Virus record (IMG/VR): IMGVR_UViG_3300021400_000020
Location: 1 to 64,000 of that record
Length of the DNA: 64,000 nucleotides
Reading direction: 5' to 3' (one strand)
Source: a virus
Shown: piece by piece, positions 4,301 through 55,632 of the stretch
Layout: the number at the start of each line of letters is the position of its first letter
Position numbering within the stretch: position 1 is the first letter of the stretch
The notes under the pieces: model-generated
What the model was told of the DNA's origin: nothing
What the model saw: the letters and a program-made list of their open reading frames with translations, nothing else
Databases searched by the model: none
Translations under genes and position numbers: made by a program

Positions 4301-6127
4301 TCAACCCATTACAGGTCGGCTCACACGCATCTTACCACCAAAGGAAGCTGCACTGAATCCCCTACCACCAAAACCATAGAACCGACAGCCGATAATCAGG
4401 GTATCAGCGGCATCGGAAATATCAGTGCGCTCTTCAAGCGGTCCTGCCGTCGGAGAACTGGACCTGTACTTCTCCCTACCCTTGTCCTTCTTCACGTAGG
4501 TATGCCCATTCTTGTCAACGGCTGTAGCCACCTTCGCGTTCTCCATCGCTACTATCAAGTATTCGTTATTCTCAACATTGATTCTGAAGAATAACTGCTG
4601 CTGACCGCTCATGACATCATTCAGAAACTGATACTTCTGGTCGTGACGCATAGGTGTCTTCATATCCACCATAATGACATGCCAACCTCGCGCCGTCAAC
4701 TCTTCATTCACGACATTATAAAACTTGTACTTTTCCTGCTCCTCCAAGGCATAAGTACCACCCTGCTTCGCCGTTGCATCATAATAATATATAACATCAT
4801 TGCAAGTTGCCTTGTGAGGCTCATAGTAACGACACCACTTCCTACAAAGCTCACGCAGCTTTTGCTCATTCTTTACATACATGGAACTCAACACCACAAC
4901 ACTCTCCACACCATCCATCTTGTACTGCTGACCTGTCACCACAGTATTGATGTTCTTGTTGTAGTCGAAAGCAATCCGCAATGGCAAGCCAGGCACTACG
5001 TCCGTATCAAGCACACAGTTGTAAGTGGCACGCTGCAAGGCATCAAGGTCTGGTGCCTTATACGAGTCGCCGTTCATCATCTTGTGCTTCGCCATGAACT
5101 TCTTCTGGATCACTTCGGTCTGGTCGTCCTCACGTGGCGCATACCCATGAACATGGACATCGAAACTCGAATAATATCCGTCCTTCGCCGCAGCCGTGCG
5201 CTTACCCAAAATCTGCCTGTCAAATACCAACTTCGGCAACTGACGCTCCATCCTCGCTATATAATCCTCACCAAGTATTTCAATATTTTCCAAGGAACTA
5301 AAATTGAAAAATGCCAGACTCTGACAACGCAACTCCTGCAATCGACTGCTCCACTCAGGAAACTCATGACTATTCGACAAGTCAATGCCATACTCCTCCA
5401 TGTAATGCTGCTGCTCTGCAAGCATCTCGACAATCTGCTGATTCACTTCTTCGGTCTGGTCATCCTCCGCACTCTCCCACTCCTGCTGAGCCAACGTCAA
5501 ACCACTATCACTACACCAAGTCTGACTCAAATAACGAGGGTTCTTCTTCGACCAACCAGGATGGTCATAGACATCGCCACGCAAGGCGGGAATTACCTCT
5601 TGCAAGACTTTCTGCCAATTAAAGAAACGAACCTCGTCCCCCATAATCCAACATAGGTTGTAACTGTTGGCAGACGCTCGCTGCTCCATCGAAACCATAA
5701 TCATCACAGCACCATTGTAGAAATGCAAAGCGTTCTCCCAGACACGAGGCTTCACCAAGGGCTCAACATAACCCGAACGCTTCGGAGCATGACCACGGAA
5801 ATACTGCACACCCTCCTTCCATCCTAACATCGTCTCTAACGACTTAACCATATTCGGCATCGTCTTACAGTACAGCTGCTTCAAACTATTACCTAAGAAC
5901 GCACCTAAACCTCTCGGTATCGTCTGCACATTCGCCGTCAGAAATGGGGCTTCTATACTTGTCTTGCCGAATCCTCGACCTGCACGGATATAGGTCTCCC
6001 TCGCACCAAAATTATATATCAACTGCTGAGCACGACTTAGGTACATCTCACGATACTTCGGTGTGAGCTTCTTTCCCTCAGCCAAATCCAAAGGCAATAC
6101 ACTGTCTAATAGCCCTGTGTGCATCAT
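4301..6127 (-). CDS. terL: Terminase large subunit
   Basis: 608 aa. Walker A-like RAGRGFGKTS, Walker B-like IMGDEVRF, and the size and layout typical of TerL. Confidence 0.7.
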   Translation of the reverse strand: MMHTGLLDSVLPLDLAEGKKLTPKYREMYLSRAQQLIYNFGARETYIRAGRGFGKTSIEAPFLTANVQTIPRGLGAFLGNSLKQLYCKTMPNMVKSLETMLGWKEGVQYFRGHAPKRSGYVEPLVKPRVWENALHFYNGAVMIMVSMEQRASANSYNLCWIMGDEVRFFNWQKVLQEVIPALRGDVYDHPGWSKKNPRYLSQTWCSDSGLTLAQQEWESAEDDQTEEVNQQIVEMLAEQQHYMEEYGIDLSNSHEFPEWSSRLQELRCQSLAFFNFSSLENIEILGEDYIARMERQLPKLVFDRQILGKRTAAAKDGYYSSFDVHVHGYAPREDDQTEVIQKKFMAKHKMMNGDSYKAPDLDALQRATYNCVLDTDVVPGLPLRIAFDYNKNINTVVTGQQYKMDGVESVVVLSSMYVKNEQKLRELCRKWCRYYEPHKATCNDVIYYYDATAKQGGTYALEEQEKYKFYNVVNEELTARGWHVIMVDMKTPMRHDQKYQFLNDVMSGQQQLFFRINVENNEYLIVAMENAKVATAVDKNGHTYVKKDKGREKYRSSSPTAGPLEERTDISDAADTLIIGCRFYGFGGRGFSAASFGGKMRVSRPVMG

Positions 6128-6240: not shown

Positions 6241-7104
6241 TTAAAAGTCCTCCTCTTCCAATTCCTCCACCTCTTTATATGCAGGAGTTTCGCCATTGCC
6301 ATCATCATCCACCTCGTCAGCTTCTCCGTATGCAGCGGTTCTGCCGTTGCCATCATCATCCACCTCGTCAGTTTCTCTGTATGCAGCGGTTCTGCCGCTG
6401 CCATCATCGTCCACCTCGTCAGCTTCTCCGTATGCAGCGGTTCTGCCGCTGCCATCATCGTCCACCTCGTCAGTTTTTCTGTATGCAGCGGTTCTGCCGC
6501 TGCCATCATCGTCCAGCGAACGACGCTCCAACTCTTCCATGCGTTGCTCCAGCATCTGCTGAATATGGTCCTTCGTACCACCATATCTGTTATACAAGGC
6601 TATCAACTCCTTACGGGTAATCGTCTTCTTGTCACTACTAATCGTCTCGACACGGGAGGTGAGGAATATAGGCAACTGAGCTGTATTGCTGGCTGCCTCT
6701 ACCGCACTGTCCTCCTTGTCCAAGTGGTCTATGTCCTTCAGCAACTCAGCTCCCTTGATTTTTGCCGTGTTGTCACCCACTGCATCACCATGACGAATGG
6801 AATCCATCGCCACCCTACGCACAATCACCTTCGACATCTCACGACTACTGTTCCTTTGACAAAGCGAAAGAATATGTAGGAAAATCTGCTTGTCTATCAC
6901 AATCTGCCAAGTTCGCCTTCCCTTCCGCTTCAACCACATGTCAACATCCATATAGGGATTGTCTTCGAATCTGTGATATAACTCTAAACATAACTTCACT
7001 CGCTCACGCTGCTTGTCACCTAAGCGCAGCTCCTCCAACGGAATTCCCAGCTCAATATGACGTGTCACCTGCTGCATGGTGTGCTGACTCGGTTCTGTAC
7101 CCAT
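6241..7104 (-). CDS. Hypothetical protein upstream of terL (small-terminase candidate by position) with acidic repeat tail
   Basis: 287 aa. The C-terminus is five 17-aa repeats (DDDGSGRTAAYxxxDEV). Confidence 0.6.
   Translation of the reverse strand: MGTEPSQHTMQQVTRHIELGIPLEELRLGDKQRERVKLCLELYHRFEDNPYMDVDMWLKRKGRRTWQIVIDKQIFLHILSLCQRNSSREMSKVIVRRVAMDSIRHGDAVGDNTAKIKGAELLKDIDHLDKEDSAVEAASNTAQLPIFLTSRVETISSDKKTITRKELIALYNRYGGTKDHIQQMLEQRMEELERRSLDDDGSGRTAAYRKTDEVDDDGSGRTAAYGEADEVDDDGSGRTAAYRETDEVDDDGNGRTAAYGEADEVDDDGNGETPAYKEVEELEEEDF
6259..6513 (-). repeat. 51-bp tandem repeat x5 inside the CDS; each unit contains hairpin B
   Basis: Each unit carries gcagcggttctgccg(c/t)tgc, the same stem as intergenic hairpin B, with loop TTCTG. 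Confidence 0.85.
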
Positions 7105-11987: not shown

Positions 11988-13526
11988 ATGGCACATGATT
12001 CTAACATAACGGCTCCACAGTCGGGTATGACATTCAATGTCACACCAAAGGAATCCCGTATGCCACTCGTTTCCGTCGAACTGGAGAAAAGAGTCATTGG
12101 AGAACTGATGAATTCCAATAAGGAAAATTTCTTCAAGATAAAGGAATTCCTCTCTGAAGACTGCTTCTACATGTCGATGAACAGGACAATCTACAAAGCT
12201 ATAAAGGCAGTCTGCGAAAACGGAGATAACCCCGACATGCCCATCGTCTGCAACGAAATCGTCAGACAAAACCCAAACCTGACACTCCCGCAAGTCATGC
12301 CAGAAGTCGCCAGCATCGTAGCCTATTCGGTGTTCACGGGACAACTCGCAAGAAATGCCATCATACTACAAGACTTCGCACGACGAAGACTGCTGAAAAT
12401 GACATTCGACACCTTCAGCGCAAAGGTGAACCAACTCGATACAAGCGTAGAGGAAATCGTGGAGAACCTGCATGACAAACTGAAAACCATCATGCAGGAC
12501 TCAGGTGTCAACGCAAAGACACTCACAAACGCACTCGAAGAACTCTACGAACGCGTCAAGACAAACCTCTCCACGGGAGGACAACATGGAAGCTACACTG
12601 GCTTCGAATTCATCGACGACAGAGGGGGATTCCAACCGTCAGACCTAATCGTACTCGGAGGAAGAACATCACAGGGAAAGACATCGTTCCTGCTCTCCAT
12701 CATCTCACACCTCATACGAGAGGGAGAAAAGACAGCACTCTTCTCACTCGAAATGACAAACGAACAACTCGCGGCTCGACTGGTATCAGGAGAGACCTTC
12801 GACATGAAAGCACACCCAACCGCCGCGGAACTCACAGAACAACCAATCATCCTTACATCAAACACCCTCCTGAACGTCAAACTTACCGATGCACAGTACA
12901 AGGTATTCGACCGAGCCATCGGAAATATCATGGTGTTCGGTGATTGCCTCTACTTCGACGACCGCTCACGACTCTCTATCGAAGTCATCATCTCCTCCAT
13001 CCGCACACTGCACTCAAAATATGGCATCAAGGGAGCTGCCATCGACTACCTCCAATCACTCTCATCGGCTGCTGATACGAGGGGAACGACACTCGAACTG
13101 CTCTACGGAGACTGGTGCAGACAACTGAAAAACCTCGCAAAGGAACTGAATATATGGATTATCATCGTGTCACAGCTGAGAAGAGACAACGACCCAGAAC
13201 CAACCAAGGAACAACTCAGAGGATCCGGACAGATCGAAGAGAATGCCGACCAGATATACCTTATCTACCGACCTGAATTCTACGGCAAGGAATACACAAT
13301 GGAAGGATTCGAGGACATCTCCACCAAAGGAACAGCACTCGTTAAACTCGATAAGGGACGAAACATAAAAACGGGAGCATTCATCTGCGGATGGGATGCA
13401 GCAACAACGAAATACTATAACATCCCTTACGACAGACTGCCACACAAGACAGACATCGTAAAGACAAACCAAACGACAGTCCAAACCGCCCACTCCGAAG
13501 AAGGACATAAGGACTACCCGTTTTAA
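11988..13526 (+). CDS. dnaB: Replicative DNA helicase DnaB
   Basis: 512 aa. N-terminal LEKRVIGELM, Walker A GGRTSQGKTS, IIVSQLRR and GSGQIEENAD motifs. Confidence 0.9.
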   Translation: MAHDSNITAPQSGMTFNVTPKESRMPLVSVELEKRVIGELMNSNKENFFKIKEFLSEDCFYMSMNRTIYKAIKAVCENGDNPDMPIVCNEIVRQNPNLTLPQVMPEVASIVAYSVFTGQLARNAIILQDFARRRLLKMTFDTFSAKVNQLDTSVEEIVENLHDKLKTIMQDSGVNAKTLTNALEELYERVKTNLSTGGQHGSYTGFEFIDDRGGFQPSDLIVLGGRTSQGKTSFLLSIISHLIREGEKTALFSLEMTNEQLAARLVSGETFDMKAHPTAAELTEQPIILTSNTLLNVKLTDAQYKVFDRAIGNIMVFGDCLYFDDRSRLSIEVIISSIRTLHSKYGIKGAAIDYLQSLSSAADTRGTTLELLYGDWCRQLKNLAKELNIWIIIVSQLRRDNDPEPTKEQLRGSGQIEENADQIYLIYRPEFYGKEYTMEGFEDISTKGTALVKLDKGRNIKTGAFICGWDAATTKYYNIPYDRLPHKTDIVKTNQTTVQTAHSEEGHKDYPF

Positions 13527-15779: not shown

Positions 15780-16850
15780 ATGAAACTCCTGCTTCAAATG
15801 AATAGCAAAGAACTAAAAGCATACTATTCCAACCTCGTCCACTACAAGGAAGAAACGCTACCACGACTATTCGCACTCGAAGATGCGTGGGAAGAACAGG
15901 ACTTCAAGGACTATGACGAAGGTCTCCAACTGGTACTGGCATTCCAAACGGCTAAGTCATTCGTGACATCTGCATACCGCTTCGACGTGGAGGACAGACT
16001 GAGACGAATCAACGGATTCATCGAAGCCATTGCCAAGTGGTTCCAGCGGTTCCACCCAGAAATCATGGAGGAAATCCAGAAGGGAAATGCCGACAAGTCG
16101 GTCCTGCACCTCACTCAGTCCCATCCAGTCTATAACGAGAAGGGCGAACACACGGGCTACGGCAGCGTGGCATTCGCTCCACCAGCACCAATGCCGGACG
16201 AGGATGGCAACATACCTCCACAGAAAACTTTCATCGAGGCAGTCAACGACATGGAACAACAGGTCGGAAACGGATACAAGCACGTAAGCGACATCCTACA
16301 CCTGCTTTCTCCTGAGACAAGGAAAAGAGCACTGTCACTGCCAGACCTCTACCTCTCCCTGACATCTCTCCGTCAGAAGTGCGAATTGCTCTACACCAAC
16401 AAACGGGCTTCCGAGACGGATAGGAAATACTTCGCTGACCAACTTACCAAGACAGAGGACAACATCCTGAACATCTACGAGCATATCAAGATGGAAGTGG
16501 AAGCTGCCAACGGGATGGTCATCAGCGAGGAAGCAAAAAACAAGATTCTCCAGGAAGCAGAAAAATTCAAGGAGAGAATACAAAAACCTGGAGAATACAC
16601 CAAGGACGACATCGACCTCCTGCCAGAAGGAGAGGAAAAGGAAAGCCTTCGCGCTGCACGAATCGAACGAAACAAGAAGTTCCTGCGACGCAAGGACATT
16701 CAAACTTCCCCTGAGCACGCTGAAGCTATGCGAATTGCAGCGACCGAACTGCTCGAATGGGGCATCAAGATAACACCTGCCATCATAGAGAACCTGAGAC
16801 GACATGGTGTTACACTACCATCAGAATCTGAAGAACAGCAACTTAGTTAG
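15780..16850 (+). CDS. Hypothetical protein
   Basis: 356 aa. No motif recognised. Confidence 0.7.
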   Translation: MKLLLQMNSKELKAYYSNLVHYKEETLPRLFALEDAWEEQDFKDYDEGLQLVLAFQTAKSFVTSAYRFDVEDRLRRINGFIEAIAKWFQRFHPEIMEEIQKGNADKSVLHLTQSHPVYNEKGEHTGYGSVAFAPPAPMPDEDGNIPPQKTFIEAVNDMEQQVGNGYKHVSDILHLLSPETRKRALSLPDLYLSLTSLRQKCELLYTNKRASETDRKYFADQLTKTEDNILNIYEHIKMEVEAANGMVISEEAKNKILQEAEKFKERIQKPGEYTKDDIDLLPEGEEKESLRAARIERNKKFLRRKDIQTSPEHAEAMRIAATELLEWGIKITPAIIENLRRHGVTLPSESEEQQLS

Positions 16851-16919
16851 ATGATACAGATGAATTTTTTTTCATTCGTTTAAATTTTAATGGATAAAAC
16901 TTTTAATTAATCTCATTTC

Positions 16920-17270
16920 AACAGGTGTGTTGTGAAACATGCCTGTTTCCAGAAAGACAATATCAAGACACTATCACGTGTTGAATAACAATATACCCTA
17001 AAAACTGAATTAAATTAAATAATTGATTTTAACTCTTCGTCCCAGTCTGTTGGGAAACACACTGGGACACTCCGATAAGGTTAATAATAAACTCGCAATA
17101 TATAATGCTATAGGATGATATTTTATAGTTTAAGAACATTTGAAGCAATTTTTTAGTTCAATTTAAGTGAAAAAGAAGTAAAGAACTTGGATGCTCCATA
17201 AGGAACGAATGCGGACCGAATGGGACACCAAAAGAGTCGAACCACTGAGAAGTTCTTCGACTCTTTTTTC
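16920..17270 (+). ncRNA. Candidate small RNA locus: two related GNRA-capped hairpins plus an intrinsic terminator
   Basis: No ORF of 60 aa or more. Hairpin 1 at 16920-16947 (12 bp, loop GTGA). Hairpin 2 at 17039-17068 (13 bp with 1 mismatch, loop GGGA). Both share the apex TGTT-GNGA-AACA. Terminator at 17232-17270. Confidence 0.45.
17232..17270 (+). terminator. Intrinsic terminator
   Basis: AAGAGTCGAA ... TTCGACTCTT stem followed by a T run. Confidence 0.75.
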
Positions 17271-17290
17271 AAAACAAAAGATTTTATTTA

Positions 17291-17298
17291 TAACTTTG
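17291..17298 (+). promoter_or_regulatory. -7 box TAACTTTG
   Basis: 23 nt upstream of the 17321 ATG. Confidence 0.6.
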
Positions 17299-17320
17299 CA
17301 AGCAAATTCAAAAACTGACA

Positions 17321-18685: not shown

Positions 18686-18884
18686 AGAAGATAATTATGG
18701 CTTACGGAATCTGATGTTGTGAGCATGTTGAAAAACAGTCATTCATAAAACAATTCTTACTTAATATTGCAGAGTTGATGTAAAAGAATCACTGCATTCA
18801 CCCTCTTTTTGTGGTGACGATGCAGAAAAATATACGGCAAAAATTGCACATATTAACTATAAATGTGTAACAAATTCGCTTAAA

Positions 18885-18920
18885 ATTGCACACTACAACA
18901 ATAGTGTGCAATTTTTGTTT
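18885..18920 (+). terminator. Intrinsic terminator
   Basis: ATTGCACACT/AGTGTGCAAT 10-bp stem followed by TTTTTGTTTT. Confidence 0.7.
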
Positions 18921-19188
18921 TATTGAATTTTGAGTCATAATTTTTTTCGACCTGTAAAAATTTGCGCCATTCCGAATTTTTTTTTGATTTTTTTTGTTTT
19001 TTTTTCACGCGCACCCCACGCGCCCCGCAAAGGAACACGGGCGTTCCTCGCCTGGTTCGGAACGTTCGCAAATATGCCTGAATGATTCCACCAAAACGAG
19101 CAGCACACACCCAGACGATCGCCATAAAAGAGGTACGCGTAGAAATGGCATCCAAGACAGCGAAAAAGCATCTTTTCAGATTCGAGAG

Positions 19189-19237
19189 AAAAACACCCGA
19201 TTTTGTAAAGTCGAGTTTGCAAAATTGGGTGTTTTTT
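19189..19237. terminator. Long hairpin, possibly a bidirectional terminator
   Basis: AAAAACACCC ... GGGTGTTTTT with an inner TTTTG/CAAAA stem. Confidence 0.5.
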
Positions 19238-19340
19238 CGCTTTGTTGATGCTAAGTGAAATTTTTTTCAATCTTTAGATTGAAGCGAAAATGCGCTTAAA
19301 ATTTTTGTAGTGAAAATTTGCATGAATGAAAAACACTTTA

Positions 19341-19348
19341 TAACTTTG
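19341..19348 (+). promoter_or_regulatory. -7 box TAACTTTG
   Basis: TAnnTTTG match upstream of the 19508 gene. The distance (about 160 nt) is long. Confidence 0.35.
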
Positions 19349-19507
19349 CATCGTCGAAAACAAAAAAACGGCAACAAAACATTGACTGATTAGAGGTCTG
19401 GTTAAAGAGGCTTTTACACCTAAATAAACAAGCCCAACGTGAAAAGCAGCACGGCAAAAATTGCTAAAAATAACAAAATTTTCAAACTTAATAAAACTTT
19501 TTACATT

Positions 19508-20092
19508 ATGGCAACTAAAATTTTTGCAGCGCAAAAGAATAGCGCAAAGGTAGAACTTAATCAGGTATGTAAGTCCCCATTCGCAGCTTTTAACATGTTA
19601 AAAGCAGCCGCAAAGCGTGACGAATCCGTGGAAAATGCCGCTATTCGTGAAATTATTAGCACCTCTTGCATGTATGCGAACACCTCAAAACTCGACTTTT
19701 CATGTGTTCAACTGAACTCTATGGGTGACGTTTGCACGTTGAAAAAAGTATCTACTTTCATGCAAATTGAGGGTGTTTTGTACTCAAAAGAGGGTTACGA
19801 AGTCGTTTACATGTTGGGTGCATATTATGCACTTTTGCCAATCAAAACCTCCTCTCTGGGTGTTACTTTGTCGGGTTACATTAACGCTATCGTGTCCCTG
19901 TCAAATATCCGTGCATCTTATTGCGCTATTTGGGAGAAAAAAGCATCTAAGAAAAGCAGCGCAAAGAAGAGTGCAAAGAGTGTCGAAGAGGATGACGTGA
20001 ATAGTGCTGCTTTAGCACTTAACATTCAGGCTGCATTTGCTGCAAACGGAATCATTAAAAGTCTTGACGAATGTCGCAAAATGATTGCTTAA
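19508..20092 (+). CDS. Hypothetical protein (start moved from GTG 19439 to ATG 19508)
   Basis: 194 aa beginning MATKIFAAQ. Lys/Ser-rich segment near the C-terminus. Confidence 0.6.
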   Translation: MATKIFAAQKNSAKVELNQVCKSPFAAFNMLKAAAKRDESVENAAIREIISTSCMYANTSKLDFSCVQLNSMGDVCTLKKVSTFMQIEGVLYSKEGYEVVYMLGAYYALLPIKTSSLGVTLSGYINAIVSLSNIRASYCAIWEKKASKKSSAKKSAKSVEEDDVNSAALALNIQAAFAANGIIKSLDECRKMIA

Positions 20093-20642
20093 TAGCATCA
20101 TGGCGGGTGTGAATATTGGAACGTAGGGCGGTATCGTACACCGCCACACCCTCAAAAATAGGTTGGCACGACGGTGCTAATCAGGCTTTGAAAACAAAGT
20201 TTTGCATAGAAAAAAGTGGTTGCTTTGAGCGCGGATGGTTTGCGGTTGCTTACATTCAAATTTGCTCCTTTGCAAAGCTGTTGAAAAGTTGAAATAGTTC
20301 TTTTACATTTCTGGAACAATCAAACGAAAACGTAATCTTTCGGTTTTTGTAGCAAATAGGGAATCAAACGACTTTCGGGCGTGCTTTGTTAGTAGTAAGT
20401 GCTTTGCACACTGGGTTCTCTCTGAAGCTAAGGGATGCTGCTACATTGTCGAATGTTGGGCGCGGAAAACACGGAGAACATAAACGCATGAATGTTGAAA
20501 ACTTTTGGTTCATGTGTTGGTTCATATACTGAAATACATGCCGTTGTGTTGTAACACGTTGGCATCCGTGAATTGCAGGGAAAAAAGTTTATTGCTCTCT
20601 TTTTAAGTGTCCACCAGGTTCCGACCTGATGGGTGCTTCTCT
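20093..20642 (+). ncRNA. ORF-free structured region (candidate large ncRNA or leader)
   Basis: No ORF of 60 aa or more on either strand. Nested hairpins include GGCGGT-atcgtac-ACCGCC inside GGGTGT/ACACCC, CATGAA..TTCATG, ATGCC-GTT-GTGT-tgta-ACAC-GTT-GGCAT and CCACCAGGT-tccg-ACCTGATGG. Confidence 0.4.
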
Positions 20643-20727
20643 GGGAGTGTGCAGCATCATATCATTGGGATGCTGCTGGCGTGCTTCTCGAAGACATGCA
20701 AGGGGTTCGACTCCTCTCACTCCCCCA
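20643..20727 (+). ncRNA. tRNA-like cloverleaf (non-canonical)
   Basis: Acceptor GGGAGTG/CACTCCC. T-arm AGGGG-TTCGACT-CCTCT with a canonical T-loop. The D-position arm is 8 bp with a 10-nt loop. The anticodon-position arm is 5 bp with an 11-nt loop (CTTCTCGAAGA). The 3' tail is C-CAA. Confidence 0.5.
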
Positions 20728-20773
20728 AATTAGAATGAAGAATAACAAATCAAAATTATAGGAGAAAAGAAAA

Positions 20774-21025
20774 ATGAACGAAACAGTCACTATGTACCAT
20801 GTAGCATATACGGCTTTCAATGGTTCGAGAAACGAAAACGATTATACGACCTCAAAAGATGCTCGTGAAAAGTTGGATGGCATCCGCTCTCAGTATGTAA
20901 ACTTTGGTTATCATTTGACAAATCGTGAAAATAATGACGGCAAGTTACGTGAAGTGTGGAAGCACCCAAAACGTGCCGATATGGTTATTGAAAATTATCA
21001 ACACGAAGTAACATTTATTCTCTAA
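20774..21025 (+). CDS. Hypothetical protein
   Basis: 83 aa. Preceded by AGGAG (20760-20764), one of the few SD-like sites in the window. Confidence 0.6.
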   Translation: MNETVTMYHVAYTAFNGSRNENDYTTSKDAREKLDGIRSQYVNFGYHLTNRENNDGKLREVWKHPKRADMVIENYQHEVTFIL

Positions 21026-21075
21026 CAATATTCACTAAAACCTTTACGGTGGTGTAGGCAAACCGTTTCTCAAAA

Positions 21076-21210
21076 ATGGATCGCTTGAAAAATCTTTGGT
21101 ATCGACCTATCATAAATGATGGGGAGGACGTATTTACCTTCGGGCAATGCGTCATGGCTTGTCTGGGCACATTATTGCTCATAGTCATTTTAAACGTATC
21201 AACATTTTAG
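21076..21210 (+). CDS. Small hypothetical membrane protein (below the ORF-track cutoff)
   Basis: 44 aa, MDRLKNLWYRP...CLGTLLLIVILNVSTF, translated by hand. Hydrophobic C-terminus. Confidence 0.35.
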   Translation: MDRLKNLWYRPIINDGEDVFTFGQCVMACLGTLLLIVILNVSTF

Positions 21211-21246
21211 AATTTTATAATTTTACCATTCAAACATTTTAGCATT

Positions 21247-21402
21247 ATGAAAAAGGCAAGAATTATTCGATTTAACAAGAAAACAAGAGAAAATCTTTTG
21301 GTTTGTACTTTGGCTATCAGTGAGGCACTGATGACAGCTTTCTACTACAACATGGCAGAAACCGATAGCGATGTGCGCTATAAGGTTGAAACCTTGAAGT
21401 AA
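21247..21402 (+). CDS. Small hypothetical protein (below the ORF-track cutoff)
   Basis: 51 aa, MKKARIIRFNKKTRENLLVC..., translated by hand. Confidence 0.35.
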   Translation: MKKARIIRFNKKTRENLLVCTLAISEALMTAFYYNMAETDSDVRYKVETLK

Positions 21403-22930: not shown

Positions 22931-23539
22931 ATGAATGATTTGAATGATTTCGAAAAGGCTGTCAAGTCATTGCTTGACAAGCGTGCTGAAACTGATAGTT
23001 TGTTCCGCACCACTTACGCAAAGCCTAACAAGAATATCAAAGAATGTTGCCAATACATCTTCGGCACTGTTTATGAACGCGCCAAGAATCAGCATTGCAG
23101 TTATGGCGGACGTTCAGGTTGCAGTGCAGCCGTGAGTGATGAAGAAGTGGTTGGCATGGCAGTCCACTACTACGATGAAGACGACATCAAGATACCAGGT
23201 GTAAGTGCTTCTGTCTCTACAAGTGTTGCAGGTGCTCCTCCAACCAAAAGCACGGGTGCAAAGAGGAAAGCAAAATCCGCTTCCTCTGTTGCACCTGCTC
23301 CAATGGCTGTTGCAGCATCATCGGATGGCGTGTCTGCCATTAGTGCTGAACCAACCACCAAGACTCTTTCTTTCAACATGGACGGTGACAAGGTTGCCGT
23401 CCGTGGAACTCTGACATCAAGCCAGAGAGGTGAGCTTTTGAAGGCTGGTGCTAAATATGATTTGCAGAAGAGATGCTTCTATGTGTCTCTCGACCAGATT
23501 CAGTTAGTGATGAATATCGTAAATGGCGACGTGAAATGA
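22931..23539 (+). CDS. PcfK-like protein (AcrIIA9-family-like N-terminus)
   Basis: 202 aa. FEKAVKSLLDKRAETDSLFRTTYAKPNKNIKECCQYI...VSDEEVVGMAVHYYDEDDIK matches my recollection of the PcfK/AcrIIA9 family signature. Followed by a PcfJ-like gene, as in pCF10. Confidence 0.5.
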   Translation: MNDLNDFEKAVKSLLDKRAETDSLFRTTYAKPNKNIKECCQYIFGTVYERAKNQHCSYGGRSGCSAAVSDEEVVGMAVHYYDEDDIKIPGVSASVSTSVAGAPPTKSTGAKRKAKSASSVAPAPMAVAASSDGVSAISAEPTTKTLSFNMDGDKVAVRGTLTSSQRGELLKAGAKYDLQKRCFYVSLDQIQLVMNIVNGDVK

Positions 23540-25176
23540 AAGCATACACAAAAACACAAGCAGAAGTGAAGTCACTCCATGAGCGGCTTCACTCTCTTTC
23601 GGATGAAGAGAATCAAGAGTTGATTGATAAGGCTTACCCGATTTCAATCTTCTATCGCAGCAAGATTACAAATTGGTGTACTTGTTGTGGTAAATCGTGG
23701 ATTTCGTCGAATCTTGAAACCGTCTGCCCTTACTGCAAGAGTAATGGGCAGGTGGAAGTGTCACGAAAGCAGAAGTACGATGATAAGAGGATGGCACTTG
23801 TTGTTGACACGTTGGACGGATGGCAGGTACTCAGGTTCTTTGAGGTGTCCCGATGGTCGCGTAAAGACTCCGTTCATAATTCAAGCACCACGTTTGAAGT
23901 GGTGCAAGCCTGGTATCATCCAAGCGGCAAACGAGAAATCTTGCGTCGTCCTCGTCGCCCATTCTCTTACATGTGGGATGCTTTCACTTCTCTTCCAATG
24001 TGCTTCTCTCAGGAACGAGAACAGCAGCAGTTCGATTATAGTTCTCTCGGTTACAGTGTCGTGATTGAGAAGAATGTATTGAAAGAGTTTGAAGGATTTG
24101 CATTTGACGAAGACGATTGCTTTCAAGATATAAGTCGCGCTTCACTCTATTACATTCTGTCACGCCATCCTTTAGCCAACTCATTGATTAGGGACGGGCA
24201 TCTGGATTTGGTGAAGAAAGTTCTGAAAAGGGATTTAATCACACCTAAAATGATGGTTGCCTTGAATGTAGCCATTCGCCATAAGTTCAACTTCAAAAAG
24301 AATGATGTTTCCTCGTGGATGGACATGGTGAATGCTATGATATACTTAGGCGACGATATTTTGGATCCAAAAAATGTCGCACCTAAAAGAACTTTCATGG
24401 TGATGCACAACACAGCCATTAGTCGAATGGCTGCAGAACAGAAAAGACGTCGTAGATGGGCAGTGAAAAAGAAACTATTGAAAACGAAAATTCCAATGGT
24501 TGAAACGCTTATTAAGAGTAACGATGTTTGGGTTGAAAGACTCGCAAAACTGAGCGACTCACACCGACTCACAGCAGATTACCTGAACGCTATCAAGATT
24601 GCCCGCCGAACTTCTTACGATTTCGGCACTTTGCAAGACTTCTCTAAATGGTCAGATTACATCGCTAATCTGATAAGACTTGGGAAAGATATTCACAACG
24701 CATATTATGTTGCTCCTAAGTTGTTAGACGATGCATATCGCAAGTCTGTTAATCAGATTGAAAAGCACCGAATTCAGGAATTGATAGAACGAAATAAGCG
24801 TGAAGCACAAACCAAAAACGACCAATATGTGAAAAGCAAGGGTGCGTACTTCAACATCGACATTAACGATGGCGTTGTATTCTGCCATGTTCTTCAGAGT
24901 GTTGCAGAATTTGTTGAAGAGGGCGCGACGATGCACCACTGCGTTTATCAGATGGGCTATTACAATAAACCTAACTCGCTCATCCTCTCCGCACGAGTTG
25001 ACGGTAAGCGGATGGAGACAGTCGAAGTCAATCTGAGAGACTTCACCATTTCGCAAAGCCGAGCTGTTTGCAATGGCGTGAGCAAGTATCACAATGAAAT
25101 CGTTGAACTTGTGAATAGTCAGATGCACAAGATTCGTGAAGTGAGGGAAGCGAGCTTTAAAAAGAAAGCAGCATGA
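23536..25176 (+). CDS. PcfJ-like protein
   Basis: 546 aa from the ATG at 23536 (ATGA overlap with the upstream stop). CxxC pairs (CTCCG, CPYCK) near the N-terminus. C-terminal EGATMHHCVYQMGYY...LILSARVDGKRMETVEV. Confidence 0.5.
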   Translation: MKAYTKTQAEVKSLHERLHSLSDEENQELIDKAYPISIFYRSKITNWCTCCGKSWISSNLETVCPYCKSNGQVEVSRKQKYDDKRMALVVDTLDGWQVLRFFEVSRWSRKDSVHNSSTTFEVVQAWYHPSGKREILRRPRRPFSYMWDAFTSLPMCFSQEREQQQFDYSSLGYSVVIEKNVLKEFEGFAFDEDDCFQDISRASLYYILSRHPLANSLIRDGHLDLVKKVLKRDLITPKMMVALNVAIRHKFNFKKNDVSSWMDMVNAMIYLGDDILDPKNVAPKRTFMVMHNTAISRMAAEQKRRRRWAVKKKLLKTKIPMVETLIKSNDVWVERLAKLSDSHRLTADYLNAIKIARRTSYDFGTLQDFSKWSDYIANLIRLGKDIHNAYYVAPKLLDDAYRKSVNQIEKHRIQELIERNKREAQTKNDQYVKSKGAYFNIDINDGVVFCHVLQSVAEFVEEGATMHHCVYQMGYYNKPNSLILSARVDGKRMETVEVNLRDFTISQSRAVCNGVSKYHNEIVELVNSQMHKIREVREASFKKKAA

Positions 25177-25450: not shown

Positions 25451-26662
25451 ATGAGAAAGAACGTAAAAATGTCCGACGCACAAATCGGACGCTATTCAGA
25501 GATGATTACTTCCGCATTGACAAGCATGGAGGAAACCGAGTGGCAGAAGCCTTGGAACACAACGATGGTAATGCCTAAGAACTTCTATCGCAAGAAGGAG
25601 TTCGGCATCATCAACAAGTTCATGCTGATGCTGATGGGAGCGAACAAGTACAAGGTTCAGCTTTACATGACACTCAACCAAATCAAGAACATCAACGGTA
25701 CATTCAAGTATGACGGACTCTCCATATCGAAAGGCGAACGTGCATACCCAGTTTGGAGCACGACGGTCTTCTATCGCAACGAAGACGGCGGCATCATCTA
25801 CCCTAAGCAGTATGACGAATTGCCAGAAGAAGAGAAGGAGGAGTTCACGAAATGTTTCGCAGACAAGATTTACCCTGAGTGGAACATCGAACAGACGAAC
25901 TTTGCAGAAATCTACCCTGAAGACTACGCGAAATTGCTTGAGCAGATGGAGCAGGAGAAAGACGACATCGCTTGCACCAATGAAGTGCTCGACAAGATGA
26001 TTGAGGGCGGCGAGTGGATTTGCCCAATCGGTTTTGGTGGCGGTTCTGCTTGCTTCTACCCTAACCAAAAACGTATTTCTCTCCCTTTACGTAGCACATT
26101 CATTAGCAATGCCGCTTTTTACGGGACAGCACTTCACGAGATGGCTCACTCCACTAAGATTGCAATCCGCCGCGACTTCGGCAAGAAGTCCTGGGGCGAC
26201 GAGGGATATGCGATTGAGGAACTTGTAGCGGAAATGACCTCTGCCATCCTCTGTATGCATGTTGGCATCGAAAAAACCATCGACGAACAACATAAGGCAT
26301 ACGTTACAAGTTGGCGTAAGGAAATCAAGAAAGAAAAGAACAAGTTCATTCCGCTTGTTATCAGCCACATCTTTGCAGCGGCTCGTCTGATGCTCCGCCA
26401 CTATGCAGAGGTGGAGAGTACGGGACATATTCAGCTCTCCGACCACGAGAAAGCAAAGGTGGTGACAGAAGCAGCTACACAGTTGCTGATGGACATCGAG
26501 GACGACCAACTCAAAATCACGGGAACTCCTTCCCCTGTTCAGGTTGAACAACTCGAAAAGGTGGGCGCCACCTACGACATCGACAATGGTGTGTATCGAG
26601 CACCGCTTGAGTTAATCACAGATATTTGCACGATTATAACAAACGTCAATGAGGCTGCATAA
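25451..26662 (+). CDS. ardC: ArdC-like antirestriction protein (ssDNA-binding N-domain + zincin HExxH)
   Basis: 403 aa. N-terminal WQKPW region, LHEMAHST (HExxH), and YAIEELVAEMTSAIL typical of ArdC. Confidence 0.75.
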   Translation: MRKNVKMSDAQIGRYSEMITSALTSMEETEWQKPWNTTMVMPKNFYRKKEFGIINKFMLMLMGANKYKVQLYMTLNQIKNINGTFKYDGLSISKGERAYPVWSTTVFYRNEDGGIIYPKQYDELPEEEKEEFTKCFADKIYPEWNIEQTNFAEIYPEDYAKLLEQMEQEKDDIACTNEVLDKMIEGGEWICPIGFGGGSACFYPNQKRISLPLRSTFISNAAFYGTALHEMAHSTKIAIRRDFGKKSWGDEGYAIEELVAEMTSAILCMHVGIEKTIDEQHKAYVTSWRKEIKKEKNKFIPLVISHIFAAARLMLRHYAEVESTGHIQLSDHEKAKVVTEAATQLLMDIEDDQLKITGTPSPVQVEQLEKVGATYDIDNGVYRAPLELITDICTIITNVNEAA

Positions 26663-28669: not shown

Positions 28670-31600
28670 ATGAAACGATTAGACAAAAACATCGAGGCAC
28701 TGAAGATTGCTATCGAAATTGCAAACTCACCACGCACATTGAATCAGAAAGAAGTAGAAGCACTCCAGGCTTATAGCGGATTTGGAGGTATCGACATTGC
28801 ACACCTGAACAACGAGGATGCAGAGACATTGCAGAACGTCGTTGAGACTATCTCCCAAATCACCAACGAACCAGCCGACACACTGATGCGCTCACTGAAG
28901 ACATCAACACTGACAGCCTTCTACACTCCTACCGTCATACCGCAAGCAGTCAGCATCGCCATGCAGCTTGCAGGACTCCAGCCGAAGCGCATCCTCGAAC
29001 CGTCTTGTGGCACAGGCAACTTCCTCCAGCCTTTCGTACAGTCCTACCCACAAGCAGCAACCATCGCTTACGAGATTGACGCAGTGACAGCTCTTGTCAC
29101 AAAGGCGCTCTATCCTAACACAGACCTACGCATTGCAGGATTCCAGACCATATCATCTTCCGACTTGAAGACATTCGACCTCACGGCAAGCAACATCCCA
29201 TTCGCTGACGTGAAAGTGTTTGACCCATCGTTCACTTCACCCGTCGAATTGGACGCTTGCCGCTCACTGCATAGCTATTTCGTGATGAAAGGTGTCTCCA
29301 CACTTCGCAACGGTGGAGTCCTTGCTTTCCTCACCACACAAAGCTATCTCAACTCCCTTACTCACATCGAACAAGTGCGCCACATCTTCCGCAATGCAAG
29401 ACTCGTGTCGGCAACACGATTGCCCAACAACCTCTTCGCTGATACTGAAGTCGGAACCGACCTCCTGATTCTTCAGAAGGAACTCGGCAAGGAAGAACTC
29501 ACCGCAAACGAATGGTTGCTGACTTCTTCAGCCGACAATGCGGATGGGGTTGTTCGCAACGCTTACTTCGAGTGTTTCCCTGAGCATTACATCTGCACAA
29601 GCAAGGAAGTGAAGCGAGGACTGTACGGAAAGCTCCAACTCGTCACCAAGCATGAGGGTGGTGTGAACGGCATCGCTGCCGACCTCTTTCAGCAGGTAAG
29701 CCGCGACTTCGCCACGAACATCAACGTTGCCCTCTTCAACAACAACTTCGCCAAACTGACGGCATCCACTTCGAAGACAACGACCCAGAAGCCTACCACG
29801 GAAAAGACTCGCCACGAGGACGAGCGCCTGTCATTACTTCAAGAAATTCTGAAGGCATACGACAAGCTCTATGCCTACGAGATGGAACAACAGCAGGAGA
29901 ACACCGAAATGAGAGACGAACTGAATCGTCTCTACGACCAGTTTGTTGCTCGATACGGACAACTCAACAAACCCAGTAATCGTTCCTTCATACGCTCCAA
30001 GAATCTATCTGACCTTCTTGCTTTGGAACTACAAGAAACAGCGGGCATCTTCGTAAAGGCTGACATCCTCCATCATCCAGTGGCATTCGACATCAACGAG
30101 AAGTCATCATTCGACAATGCACATGAAGCCCTCTCTGCATCGCTGAACAAGTTTGGCAAAGTGAATCTTCGGTATATGCAGGATGTGAGCAACCTGAGCG
30201 AGAAGGAAATCTTCTCGGAACTCGCTGGCGAGATTTTCTTCAACCCTCTCAAAAACGAATGGGAAATCAAGGAAATGTTTATCAGCGGCGACGTTATTAG
30301 TAAGGCTGACCGCATCGAGACCATCATGCCAAACGTCGCAAAGGAGAACGAACGATTTGCCAAGGAGTCGTTGGAAGCACTCCGCGCTGCCACTCCCACG
30401 CCCATCCTCTTCGCCGACCTCGACTTCAACTTGGGCGAACGCTGGATGTCTCCAGAAGTGTATGAGAATTTTGCAATGGACTTCTTCAATGTTCACAGCG
30501 ATAGGGAGAAGGCTATCTCGGTGGTGTTCTCTCCCGACCTCGACCAGTACGAAGTGAACCTCAATATATGGGGAAATGAGAGAATATATACAGAGTATGC
30601 CGTGGTAGGCGAGAATGTCACATACGACGGTATCGAACTCTTCACTCATGCCCTCCACAACACCATTCCTGCTATCAAGAAATGGAATGGAGAATACGAC
30701 GCAAACGGAAAGAAAATCATGGTTCGTGACGAAGAGCGTATCCAGTTCGCCACATCGAAGATAGAAGAAATTCGAGATGGTTTCTGCCAATGGCTCTTCA
30801 GGCAGCCTGTGGATTTCCAACTCCAACTACAAGACACCTACAACCGACGCTTCAATGCTTGTGTGCGACCTGCTTACAACGGTTCGCATCAGACTTTTCC
30901 AGACCTCGACCTCGACGCACTCGGTGAGAAGTACGGCATCCGACAAATCTATCAGTCCCAAAAGGATTGCATTTGGATGCTCAAACTGAATCAAGGTGGT
31001 ATATGCGACCATGAGGTAGGAACAGGCAAAACGCTGATTATGTGCATGACGGCACACGAGATGCACCGACTCGGCATCGCTCACAAACCTATCATCATCG
31101 CACTCAAGGCAAACGTCGCTGCCATTGCAGAGACTTACCAAACTGCATACCCTAACGCTCGCATCCTCTACGCATCTGAACAGGACTACAGCTCTGCCAA
31201 CAGAGCAGACTTCTTCCGCCGTGCCAAAAACAACGACTATGACTGCATCATCATGTCACACGAGCAGTTCGGCAAGATTCCTCAGTCGCTCGAAGTACAG
31301 CGCGACATCATCGAGGATGAACTCCGACAGCTCGACGATGCTCTCTACCACTTCCTCGAAACAGGTGGCAGCGATTCGTTCAAAATTCGCAAGGGACTTG
31401 AGAAGCGTCGTGAGAACCTGCACGCCAAACTGACAAAGCTGGAGTACGACATCAACCATCGCAAGGATGATGTTATAGACTTCGCCATGATGGGCATCGA
31501 CCACATCTTCGTGGACGAAAGCCATCAGTTCAAGAACCTCATGTTCTCCACTCGACATGAGCGTGTGGCTGGACTCGGAAACCCTACGGGAAGTCAACGA

Positions 31601-33478
31601 GCATTCAACTTGCTCATTGCCATCCGCACCATTCAGCGCAAGAAGCAAAGAGACCTCTGCGCCACCTTCCTCAGCGGCACGACCATCACCAACTCGCTCA
31701 CCGAACTCTTCTGTCTCTTCAAGTATATGCGTCCTCGTGCTCTCGCTCGTCAGAACATCTTCTGCTTCGACGCATGGGCTGCCATCTTCACTCGCAAGAG
31801 TACGGAATATGAATTCTCCATCACCAACGAGATTCAGAGTAAGGAACGTTTCCGCTACTTCATCAAGGTTCCCGAGTTGGCTGCCTTCTACAACGAAATC
31901 ACGGACTACCGCACGGCAGAGGATGTAGGCATCGACCGACCTGTCAAGAAAGAAATCCTTCACAACATCGCACCGACCGAAGACCAGAAGGACTTCATCG
32001 AACGATTGATGAAATTCGCTAAGGGTGGCAATTCCTCACTCATCTATCGTCCATTCCTCACCGACAAGCAACAAAAGGCAAGGATGCTCATCGCTACCGA
32101 TGCAGCACGCAAGATGGCACTCGACATGCGCTTGATTGAGCCAACCATCTTCGAGGATGATCCGAACAACAAGGCATCACACTGCGCTCAGATGATAGCA
32201 CACTATTACCACAAGTACGAGGAACAGAAAGGAACTCAGTTCGTGTTTTCCGACCTCTCCACTTGGCACTCCAACGACGAGTGGAATATCTACAACGAAA
32301 TCCGTCACAAACTCGAAGTGGAGTATGGCATCCCACGCTCCGAAATCAAGTTCATCCAGGAATGCAAGGGTGAAGCGGCAAGAACGAAAGTCATTCAGCA
32401 GATGAACGAGGGAAAGGTTCGCGTACTCTTCGGCTCCACGTCCATGCTCGGCACGGGTGTCAACGCTCAGCAACGGGCAGTGGCAGTACACCACCTCGAC
32501 ACACCTTGGCGACCATCAGACCTCGAACAGCGAAACGGACGTGCTGTCCGCAAGGGAAACCTCGTGGCAAAACAGTTCGCTAACAATCAGGTGGACGTCA
32601 TCATCTACGCCGTGGAACGCTCACTCGACTCCTACAAATTTAACCTCCTCCACCTCAAGCAGACCTTCATCCACCAGCTGAAGAGTGGCACACTCGCCAC
32701 ACGAACCATCGACGAGGGCGCAATGGACGAGAAATCGGGAATGAACTTCTCGGAATACATGGCAATCCTCTCTGGCAACACCGACCTGTTGGACCGCGCA
32801 AAGCTCGAACGCAAGGTGGCTGCACTCATGGCGGAGCGCAAGACCTACCAGCGCACCATGCACGAGGCTGCCGTGGAGCAAATCACCAAGCAGGAGAAAC
32901 TCAACACCAACGAAGAGCGCATAGCATCCATGCAGCGAGACCTCGACATCGTGAATGCCATCCCTCCATGCAAGGAAGGTGAAACCATCCTCCGCATCGA
33001 CGGATGTAAGGAGACCGACGAGAAGTCAATGGGTGAGCGCATCATCAAGTACGTTGAGAAAGCCAACACCAACGGAGCCTACATCCCAATCGGTTCCTAC
33101 GGGCAGTTCCCTGTCGTAGTCAAGTCGGAAACCGTCACCAACTCAACAGGAGACACACACACCGTCACTCGTATGTTTGTTCGTGGCGAAACAACTTACT
33201 ACTGCACCAACAACGGAAACGTGCCTATATCTCCTATCTATGCAGCACGTCAGCCACAGCAGTCACTCACCAAGATTCCGGCACTCATTGCCAAACTGAC
33301 TGAGGAAAACGTTCAGCTGGCTCGATCCATCGAAGAACTCACTCCAATCATCAACAAGCCTTGGCATAAGGAAGACGAACTGAAGAAGCTGCGCAATGAA
33401 CTTGCACAACTCGACAAGAAAATCGCAAGCTCCCTCAATGCACAAGAGCGTGAGATGTCCACGGAGGAAGAGGACTAA
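28670..33478 (+). CDS. Fused N6-adenine DNA methyltransferase / SNF2-DEAD-type helicase (polyvalent anti-restriction-type protein)
   Basis: 1602 aa. AFYTP, EPSCGTGNF (SAM motif I) and SNIPF (motif IV variant). Helicase motifs DHEVGTGKT, VDESHQFKN, SGTTITNS, GTGVNAQ and LEQRNGRAVRKGN. Confidence 0.85.
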   Translation: MKRLDKNIEALKIAIEIANSPRTLNQKEVEALQAYSGFGGIDIAHLNNEDAETLQNVVETISQITNEPADTLMRSLKTSTLTAFYTPTVIPQAVSIAMQLAGLQPKRILEPSCGTGNFLQPFVQSYPQAATIAYEIDAVTALVTKALYPNTDLRIAGFQTISSSDLKTFDLTASNIPFADVKVFDPSFTSPVELDACRSLHSYFVMKGVSTLRNGGVLAFLTTQSYLNSLTHIEQVRHIFRNARLVSATRLPNNLFADTEVGTDLLILQKELGKEELTANEWLLTSSADNADGVVRNAYFECFPEHYICTSKEVKRGLYGKLQLVTKHEGGVNGIAADLFQQVSRDFATNINVALFNNNFAKLTASTSKTTTQKPTTEKTRHEDERLSLLQEILKAYDKLYAYEMEQQQENTEMRDELNRLYDQFVARYGQLNKPSNRSFIRSKNLSDLLALELQETAGIFVKADILHHPVAFDINEKSSFDNAHEALSASLNKFGKVNLRYMQDVSNLSEKEIFSELAGEIFFNPLKNEWEIKEMFISGDVISKADRIETIMPNVAKENERFAKESLEALRAATPTPILFADLDFNLGERWMSPEVYENFAMDFFNVHSDREKAISVVFSPDLDQYEVNLNIWGNERIYTEYAVVGENVTYDGIELFTHALHNTIPAIKKWNGEYDANGKKIMVRDEERIQFATSKIEEIRDGFCQWLFRQPVDFQLQLQDTYNRRFNACVRPAYNGSHQTFPDLDLDALGEKYGIRQIYQSQKDCIWMLKLNQGGICDHEVGTGKTLIMCMTAHEMHRLGIAHKPIIIALKANVAAIAETYQTAYPNARILYASEQDYSSANRADFFRRAKNNDYDCIIMSHEQFGKIPQSLEVQRDIIEDELRQLDDALYHFLETGGSDSFKIRKGLEKRRENLHAKLTKLEYDINHRKDDVIDFAMMGIDHIFVDESHQFKNLMFSTRHERVAGLGNPTGSQRAFNLLIAIRTIQRKKQRDLCATFLSGTTITNSLTELFCLFKYMRPRALARQNIFCFDAWAAIFTRKSTEYEFSITNEIQSKERFRYFIKVPELAAFYNEITDYRTAEDVGIDRPVKKEILHNIAPTEDQKDFIERLMKFAKGGNSSLIYRPFLTDKQQKARMLIATDAARKMALDMRLIEPTIFEDDPNNKASHCAQMIAHYYHKYEEQKGTQFVFSDLSTWHSNDEWNIYNEIRHKLEVEYGIPRSEIKFIQECKGEAARTKVIQQMNEGKVRVLFGSTSMLGTGVNAQQRAVAVHHLDTPWRPSDLEQRNGRAVRKGNLVAKQFANNQVDVIIYAVERSLDSYKFNLLHLKQTFIHQLKSGTLATRTIDEGAMDEKSGMNFSEYMAILSGNTDLLDRAKLERKVAALMAERKTYQRTMHEAAVEQITKQEKLNTNEERIASMQRDLDIVNAIPPCKEGETILRIDGCKETDEKSMGERIIKYVEKANTNGAYIPIGSYGQFPVVVKSETVTNSTGDTHTVTRMFVRGETTYYCTNNGNVPISPIYAARQPQQSLTKIPALIAKLTEENVQLARSIEELTPIINKPWHKEDELKKLRNELAQLDKKIASSLNAQEREMSTEEED

Positions 33479-35524: not shown

Positions 35525-35944
35525 ATGAAAAAAATAATCACCCTGATAGCACTCTTGTGCATCACCATCACACTCTCCGCACAGAACAACAACCCTCGTC
35601 CAGACGACATCTATTCCCTTGCCAATGGTTATAACGAGAAAGTCCAAAAGGAAAAAATCAATCAGGAACGCATGGCGAAAGTAGAAGCCAACAAGAACGC
35701 CATCTTTGCAGCTGGCACAGCACTCAAGTCATCCGCCAACTGGCAATGGGTAGCTTTCGGCAGTGCAGCCGTCGGTGGAGCAACATTAGCCATCGGCTTC
35801 GACCAGAAAGAGGATGCACTGAAAATCGTCGGTTACACCTGCATGGGCTTCGCACTCGTCTCGCAAGTCGTTTCCATCACCAAGAAATACAAGGCAGGAA
35901 AACAACTCCAAATCGGTGCAGGAAAAATTACCTACACCTTCTAA
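35525..35944 (+). CDS. Secreted/membrane hypothetical protein
   Basis: 139 aa. Signal-like MKKIITLIALLCITITLSAQ and two hydrophobic segments near the C-terminus. Confidence 0.7.
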   Translation: MKKIITLIALLCITITLSAQNNNPRPDDIYSLANGYNEKVQKEKINQERMAKVEANKNAIFAAGTALKSSANWQWVAFGSAAVGGATLAIGFDQKEDALKIVGYTCMGFALVSQVVSITKKYKAGKQLQIGAGKITYTF

Positions 35945-36131
35945 ATGCCATCCGATATAATCGACTGAACCATCGCGCTCACCACGTTCCGACGAATGGT
36001 GAGCCACATCGGGTAGGGGATGCTCGACAGTCCTCTACCCACTCCTTCACCCATCTTGGGTGACGTGTTTCATGTTGTTGCACATTTTTAGTTGCGCACA
36101 TGATGTATTTAAAAGTTTGAAAATTTTTTGG

Positions 36132-55611: not shown

Positions 55612-55632
55612 TCATCAGAAAGAAAGAAATCT

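Follow-up and report, generated by a model that had tools for sequence, protein, structure and literature searches.

What is specified by a stretch of some 550 nt in a rumen phage that holds no sizeable open reading frame (ORF), is strewn with hairpins and abuts an element shaped like a tRNA? The stretch, positions 20093–20642, lies within 64 kb of viral DNA, the whole of which was analysed and is hereafter called the window; an initial annotation of its sequence put the stretch forward as a candidate large ornate RNA of the pattern seen in ROOL and GOLLD, to be checked against the models of these families, HEARO and other large RNAs. Few bacterial RNAs are as poorly understood as ROOL and GOLLD, large structured RNAs of phages with examples drawn mostly from Firmicutes and Actinobacteria.

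Genomic context of the region

The window derives from a Bacteroidota phage of the ruminant gut (rumen), possibly a plasmid-like one, and the sequencing runs in which it occurs are gut metagenomes of sheep, cattle and goats. In one of these gut runs (X1) the phage reaches ~120x assembler depth, whereas it is all but absent from two other DNA runs of that sample; the contrast suggests a fraction enriched in virus particles and speaks for a free phage. A first impression of a conjugative element, created by PcfK, PcfJ and ArdC, was abandoned because the window carries a terminase, a tape measure and ParA (Table 1), and because PcfK, PcfJ and ArdC also occur in phages; PcfK–PcfJ pairs of ~40% identity are found in the early regions of other phages, with the best annotated match in a Bacteroides salyersiae phage. 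Together with the 1602-aa methylase-helicase, which is like the large anti-restriction methylase-helicases of phage-plasmids, and the C5 methylase, these three proteins make up a large anti-restriction gene set, and the replication genes include a match to a DnaD-like loader. The strongest folding-energy outlier of the window is located at 35750–36520 (both strands, z ~ -4 after composition regression), where a search for long repeats returned none.

Table 1. Positions of the region, its predicted structural elements and selected genes in the window (hairpin z-scores are against dinucleotide shuffles)
Feature	Position	Strand	z	Remarks
ParA	699-1484
Large terminase	4301-6127	-
DnaB	11988-13526
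Bacteroidota-type promoter -7 box	19339-19350	+		TATAACTTTGCA (TAnnTTTG)
ORF194	19508-20092	+		Orphan; lysine-rich tail; adjoins region upstream
Conserved non-coding core	20093-20642	+		Candidate structured RNA
Nested hairpin	20105-20151	+	-1.3	Outer GGGTGT/ACACCC, inner GGCGGT/ACCGCC
9-bp hairpin (helix 4)	20161-20182	+	-5.3	GGTTGGCAC-GACG-GTGCTAATC
Predicted 5' multi-helix domain	20184-20290	+	-0.3	Consensus helices 5-9
Ultra-conserved central domain	20309-20460	+		Predicted junction of helices 11-17
Long hairpin	20476-20523	+	-3.4	Helices 19-20
Hairpin (helix 22)	20538-20565	+	-3.3	ATGCCG.TGTGT-TGTA-ACACG.TGGCAT
Terminal hairpin of core	20605-20638	+	-2.4	14 bp
tRNA-like cloverleaf	20643-20727	+	-3.1	Four arms
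ORF83	20774-21025	+		Small orphan protein, downstream
PcfK	22931-23539
PcfJ	23536-25176
ArdC-N plus zincin protein	25451-26662
1602-aa protein	28670-33478			N6-methylase and SNF2/helicase domains; downstream of ArdC
2425-aa protein	37680-44957	-		Tape-measure domain
C5 methylase	55441-57303

A conserved region without coding signature

The longest ORF within the region comprises 58 aa and begins with TTG, in keeping with the initial statement that none reaches 60 aa, and no ORF in 20093–20642 keeps its boundaries in all five homologues now known. A single frame is open in all five copies; it bears no coding signature, because its substitutions are distributed 7/6/7 over the three codon positions, and the five-sequence alignment contains many indels of 1–2 nt spread across the region. 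Small translated ORFs, the objection that the initial annotation had itself raised, were accordingly rejected on the unconserved ORF boundaries and the even codon-position counts. The region is also less AT-rich than other gaps, as had been claimed, with a GC content of 42.7% against 30.9%, 35.3% and 35.7% in the three nearest. No significant segment complementary to the region, or repeating it, occurs elsewhere in the window, which disposes of an antisense-target or paralogue reading, and a CsrA-type sponge was rejected with eight GGA motifs in the region against ~9 expected by composition.

Five distinct copies of the region are known (the window, L001, L002, L004 and L055), all close relatives: L001, L002 and L004 were recovered via homologues of ORF194, and L055 was the sole further relative gained by scanning contigs of JGI metagenomes with the most conserved 20-mer. 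Four more assemblies, reached through exact-protein look-ups, carry a copy identical to that of the window. The region occupies the same position in each of the four relatives, and every copy sits in a gap of ~680 nt between a 194-aa ORF and a small ORF. The five sequences are about 89–100% identical and mosaic by recombination; identity to the region is 88.6% in L001, whose flanking genes are mostly at 78–82%, and 92.9% in L002, whose flanking genes, at 98%, are more conserved than the region. Conservation is greatest in the centre, where 20309–20413 differs from the window at no position in L002 and L004, at three in L055 and at four in L001, and where most of the central-domain differences beyond 20413 fall in predicted stems; among metagenome variants, 20309–20448 is invariant except for 20383 G>A.

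Searches over wider collections returned no further members. The region had no blastn match among INPHARED phages and PLSDB plasmids; two scans of genome contigs, with ORF194 and with a PcfJ alignment, recovered no homologue; and in viral contigs three DNA patterns from the region gave chance matches only or nothing, the PcfJ alignment found nothing, and an ArdC search returned four distant phages, all without the RNA. An nhmmer search of the collected loci retrieved self-matches only, as did a covariance model built on the central domain, a search of 5.8 billion proteins revealed no such RNA beside relatives of ORF194 and PcfJ, and a search with a 483-aa ORF was swamped by low-complexity matches. 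Identity in the PcfJ search falls from 83% directly to ~45%, and the phage lineage is therefore an isolated one; the next-nearest PcfJ phages (L056, L058 and Bacteroides phage BS-TP3) have no comparable gap.

Predicted fold and conservation of base pairing

The fold of the whole region betters shuffles only modestly on the plus strand (z=-2.36) and not on the minus strand (z=-0.23); set against 1154 windows of the phage genome and regressed on composition, its folding energy is unexceptional (z=-0.59). The description of the region as hairpin-rich consequently holds for four or five local hairpins, and not for the region as a thermodynamic whole.

These local elements differ in the support that the relatives lend them. 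The nested hairpin at 20105–20151, with a one-sided internal loop of 16 nt, shows a compensatory C-G to U-A change of its inner stem in L002; the 9-bp hairpin (helix 4) shows compensatory double changes at three pairs, in L001 and L002; and in the long hairpin at 20476–20523 two sequences have replaced a C-G pair by U-A, the one compensatory change there, beside four changes of the wobble type. Helix 8 of the 5′ multi-helix domain has one compensatory pair, and the stability of this domain does not exceed that of shuffles. Neither does that of 20331–20460 (z=+0.4) within the central domain, which contains twin AATCAAACGA motifs at 20318–20327 and 20362–20371, 44 bp apart. Two pairs of helix 22 are broken in L001. 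The terminal hairpin includes three G.U pairs on the plus strand and two wobble-type changes, and is not a typical intrinsic terminator, since no U-tract follows it.

An RNAalifold consensus over the five sequences comprises 165 pairs and several junctions, with long-range helices that are without compensatory support among these five sequences. Seven of its pairs have changed on both sides and still pair, against 2.7±1.1 in shuffles (0 of 500 reach seven) and 0–1 in controls with slid partners. Because a consensus structure is fitted to its alignment, the count was repeated on the minimum free energy (MFE) fold of the window sequence itself, where five compensatory pairs stand against 1.15±1.04 in column shuffles (0 of 300 reach five) and 49% of paired-site changes keep pairing, versus 32% (P=0.003). 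Paired columns vary less than unpaired ones (13.3% and 21.8%, respectively). Double changes are located in helices at 20127–20145, 20161–20182 (three pairs), 20227–20267, 20399–20409 and 20476–20523; among variants seen in reads, 20256 T>C together with 20257 C>T exchanges G.U and G-C in helix 9, and 20383 G>A converts a G.U pair to A-U. Of the nine substitutions that L001 shows within 20309–20460, eight affect predicted stems without loss of pairing, among them one double change and six wobble-type transitions. Some ten predicted pairs are disrupted in one or another of the five sequences. The long-range helices have wobble-type support only and total stability is ordinary for the genome, so that one large ornate fold was not supported.

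Pairing is also conserved with respect to strand. On the plus strand the variable pairs comprise 63 canonical pair types and 10 non-canonical ones, whereas read on the minus strand they give 43 and 30; G.U pairs make up 27 of the 165 (16%); and in single-sequence folds ~50% of changes are kept on the plus strand and ~30% on the minus. This strand specificity points to a plus-strand RNA, in the sense of the surrounding genes, rather than to a DNA cruciform or single-stranded DNA site. Across the five sequences, base pairing is preserved beyond chance and on the plus strand only; the covariation rests on few events, since these sequences are closely similar and recombinationally mosaic. To this extent the proposal of a structured, conserved, non-coding element in a phage is upheld.

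Relationship to known RNA families

No Rfam 15 model matches the region at its gathering score in a search of the whole window, and no large-RNA family matches it at E<=10 in 19900–21300 or in the corresponding part of L001 (6500–7700). The covariance models of ROOL (RF03087) and GOLLD (RF01998), the latter with a conserved 3′ half, are silent even at E<=10, as is that of HEARO, or IS605-type omega RNA (RF02033), at the level of a model match; the ORFs neighbouring the region are without any Pfam, PHROG or NCBIfam match, and hence without a TnpB/IscB-type domain. Group I and II introns, RNase P RNA, tmRNA, 6S, OLE, raiA and all other Rfam 15 families likewise gave no match, the only one above noise around the region being that of tRNA-Sec on the adjoining cloverleaf (see below). 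Membership of any of these families falls with these results, as far as covariance models can tell, and the region looks like a conserved folded RNA whose family stands outside the curated ones and has not been described before.

ROOL RNAs average 581 nt, were first discovered in the rumen, occur in phages or prophages and often near tRNA-type genes, and have no known protein partner or function (PMC5737381; PMC12286853). [quoted passage not shown] GOLLD is a large phage or prophage RNA often situated beside tRNAs, sometimes with a tRNA inside the transcript (PMC12286853); a tRNA-shaped module likewise follows the core of the region directly, although GOLLD measures at least 800 nt against ~550 nt here, and the module is no real tRNA and is exchangeable. 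The initial remark that size and phage context fit the ROOL/GOLLD pattern was thus sound, given a 550-nt core, phage genes and a ruminant gut: the region resembles both families in size, habitat and tRNA neighbourhood, and is recognised by the model of neither.

Two IMG/VR phage contigs of 117–135 kb (L068 and L069) contain an ORF-free, stem-rich block of ~500–550 nt (2269–2765 and 2075–2625, respectively) that also lies a few kb (4.5 kb) upstream of PcfK-PcfJ-ArdC and is headed by a Bacteroidota-type promoter box, TATCTTTGCA. These blocks differ from the region in showing no sequence or covariance-model similarity to it, in having unrelated neighbouring genes, and in their perfect CTATAG-type palindromes, which fold equally on both strands and look like operator DNA; very stable on either strand, they too have no Rfam match. 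On a further IMG/VR phage contig of 100 kb (L070), a Pistol ribozyme (6642–6720; 47.9 bits, gathering score 34.5) is situated 2.3 kb upstream of an ArdC-like gene.

Possible transcription of the region

A single RNA library of the searched index, a bovine rumen metatranscriptome, contains words from the region, and it yields three genuine contigs over the full 64 kb. One falls inside the region (20170–20345; 174 nt, one mismatch, depth ~4, from an unstranded assembly), one in another ORF-free gap (16832–17239) and one in the tape-measure gene (43149–43318), with no contig of this library on the ORFs flanking the region. Random DNA carry-over is unlikely, though possible, as two of the three contigs lie in gaps that make up ~2% of the window. 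Three metatranscriptomes from the sample richest in phage DNA gave no match and say little, because the phage is nearly absent from the bulk DNA runs of that sample; what there is amounts to a trace of transcription in one library. Short, high-depth RNA matches of 31 nt at 18977–19005 are to low-complexity T-runs.

The promoter box of Table 1 occurs exactly at 17289 and 19339 and with one mismatch at 34739, in all three cases directly upstream of plus-strand genes, and by its sequence and placement the box at 19339 likely marks the start of a unit containing ORF194 and the non-coding region. No promoter box was found between 20093 and 20773, and neither terminator nor promoter between ORF194 and ORF83, so that the simplest unit runs from the 19339 promoter through ORF194, the region and the cloverleaf to ORF83, which has no box of its own and is probably co-transcribed. 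ORF194 has four homologues among 5.8 billion proteins and no match in Pfam, PHROG, NCBIfam or the PDB.

Three neighbouring stretches deserve mention in their own right. The gap at 16832–17320 (GC 31%) is represented by a 415-nt contig of the bovine metatranscriptome at depth 6 and ~93% identity, and contains several hairpins and a terminator-like stem plus T-run (17235–17268), followed by the 17289 promoter box; a second small RNA gene may lie here. The AT-rich gap of 820 nt at 18686–19507 features long T-runs, a GC-rich island (19008–19140) and perfect inverted repeats (18882–18915, and 19189–19236, the latter leading into a T-run), is a folding-energy outlier on both strands, and is a candidate origin or regulatory region. 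Downstream of ORF83, an uncalled 44-aa ORF with a hydrophobic tail (21076–21210, plus strand; MDRLKNLWYRPIINDGEDVFTFGQCVMACLGTLLLIVILNVSTF) is probably a real small membrane protein, to judge by its sequence in L001, where many of the differences are synonymous and at third codon positions.

The tRNA-like element as part of an exchangeable cassette

The cloverleaf begins 4 nt past the last hairpin of the core. It agrees with tRNA in its four arms, 7-bp acceptor stem, U8 and 5-bp T stem, whose TTCGACT loop conforms to TTCRANY and which is followed by CCA; it departs from tRNA in a ‘D’ arm with a 7-bp stem and 10-nt loop, which is not that of a normal D arm, and in a third arm with a 5-bp stem and an 11-nt loop (CTTCTCGAAGA), in place of the 5-bp stem and 7-nt loop of an anticodon arm. 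ARAGORN reports 0 tRNA genes on it, and the best match in the Rfam tRNA clan is tRNA-Sec, on 20643–20724, at 21 bits (E=0.31), where 47 is the gathering score; the cloverleaf does not qualify as a decodable tRNA. The natural variants 20646 A>G and 20724 C>T each turn an acceptor pair into G.U without breaking it. A copy of the 3′ end of a host tRNA, serving as attP, was considered and appears unlikely, both acceptor strands being present and no integrase being found among the scanned ORFs.

In L001, everything from the cloverleaf through the end of ORF83 is swapped for a different closed multibranch structure (z=-3.9) and a 71-aa ORF unrelated to ORF83; the exchange spans 20643–21032 of the window and 7133–7499 of L001, with homology resuming at 21033. 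The cloverleaf is therefore no constant portion of the RNA but belongs, with ORF83, to an exchangeable cassette, and both versions of the cassette place a tightly closed structure directly after the core. Of the initial claim of tRNA adjacency, what stands is that a tRNA-shaped element adjoins the region; a decodable tRNA is missing, and the element itself is replaced in L001.

tRNA-like modules that direct 3′ processing are known from MALAT1-mascRNA and from RNase P-processed phage RNAs such as the c4 RNA precursor of P1 and P7. The cloverleaf is likewise positioned directly 3′ of a longer non-coding stretch, and its modelled acceptor stem and T arm would suit recognition by RNase P and the CCA enzyme; it differs from these systems in having no sequence or model similarity to them, in being missing from one of five homologues, and in that its cleavage is only proposed.

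A possible RNA and its alternatives

The region is non-coding and conserved, its pairing is specific to the plus strand, and it falls outside the curated families. The explanation that we tentatively favour on moderate evidence, as possible more than probable, is a lineage-specific structured plus-strand RNA, probably released from an early operon transcript with the aid of the tRNA-shaped element. Encoded by 20093–20642 within the early (replication and anti-restriction) region of the phage, such an RNA would be transcribed together with ORF194 from the TAnnTTTG promoter at 19339 and would be built as a series of local hairpins surrounding a multi-helix centre of ~150 nt that is highly conserved. 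Its 3′ end would be set by cleavage of the RNase P type at the 5′ edge of the cloverleaf, as for MALAT1/mascRNA or transcripts linked to a tRNA, and the freed RNA might then outlast the surrounding mRNA and act in trans during infection.

A less likely, although serious, competitor is that the region is a cis-acting structured spacer of a polycistronic ORF194–ORF83 mRNA and no independently functional RNA, guarding the upstream message from 3′ exonucleases or uncoupling or tuning the expression of the downstream genes, from ORF83 to PcfK-PcfJ-ArdC, with the cloverleaf as a cleavage point between cistrons. The lack of any promoter box or terminator from ORF194 to ORF83, with the nearest promoter at 19339, is what such a spacer predicts, as are plus-strand-specific structure, expected of any mRNA element, stability residing mostly in separate local hairpins rather than in a global fold, and a 3′ module that moves with the downstream gene as a cassette. 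However, a spacer of 550 nt is unusually long for a compact phage, conservation peaks in the centre, 200–330 nt from either gene, and the metatranscriptome contig covers the region and not the adjacent ORFs.

Compared with a plus-strand RNA, a site acting at the level of DNA (a replication origin, a packaging or partition site, or an operator cluster, its hairpins being incidental or formed in single-stranded DNA) appears improbable. It would accord with the location of the region downstream of the replication genes (DnaB, the DnaD-like loader), with the 44-bp spacing of the twin motifs, with the high conservation of a central 150 nt that has no excess RNA stability, with folds under DNA parameters of z=-1.9 on the plus and -1.3 on the minus strand, and with the palindrome-rich non-coding blocks upstream of PcfK-PcfJ-ArdC in L068 and L069. 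A search of the region for iteron arrays and perfect palindromes found none, however; the 16% of G.U pairs become A.C mismatches on the opposite strand, and it is only on the plus strand that substitutions respect pairing; the region is less AT-rich than other gaps, and the AT-rich gap at 18686–19507, with its inverted repeats, is a better candidate for an origin. Nor does the region resemble a single-strand DNA promoter or origin (Frpo, ssi, sso), with a phage window and pairing on the plus rather than the template minus strand; such elements, known from conjugation, are unexpected in a phage, which injects double-stranded DNA.

That the region has no function, being a decayed remnant or neutral spacer whose similarity stems from recent ancestry and recombination and whose covariation comes from a few linked changes, appears equally improbable: a tiny, closely related family, an unexceptional MFE, faster divergence than the flanking genes in L002 and viral, genome and metagenome scans that returned close copies and no other homologue are what neutrality predicts, but in the most distant relative the region is more conserved than most neighbouring coding DNA, its compensatory pairs exceed every control, its paired columns evolve more slowly than its unpaired ones, and the central stem substitutions of L001 all preserve pairing.

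Implications

So far this amounts to a lead rather than a discovery: rigorous covariation statistics would need a larger family, and a single assembled contig represents expression. It is a long shot, argued by analogy, that the region represents a new class of large phage RNA in Bacteroidota, of which it would be the first member known, a functional analogue of ROOL and GOLLD with a covalently linked tRNA mimic. Were this so, an RNA like those two would be abundant, protein-independent and possibly self-assembling, and the tRNA mimic would either provide a handle for processing or act as a decoy for host defences directed at tRNAs, a picture that would agree with the exchange of the 3′ module as a cassette and with the position of the region at the head of an anti-restriction block (PcfK, PcfJ, ArdC and the methylase-helicase). 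The region would then be a compact new subject for work on structure and function, and the combination of a large RNA with a tRNA-shaped element would suggest a device to which phages turn repeatedly, rather than a peculiarity of the ROOL and GOLLD families.
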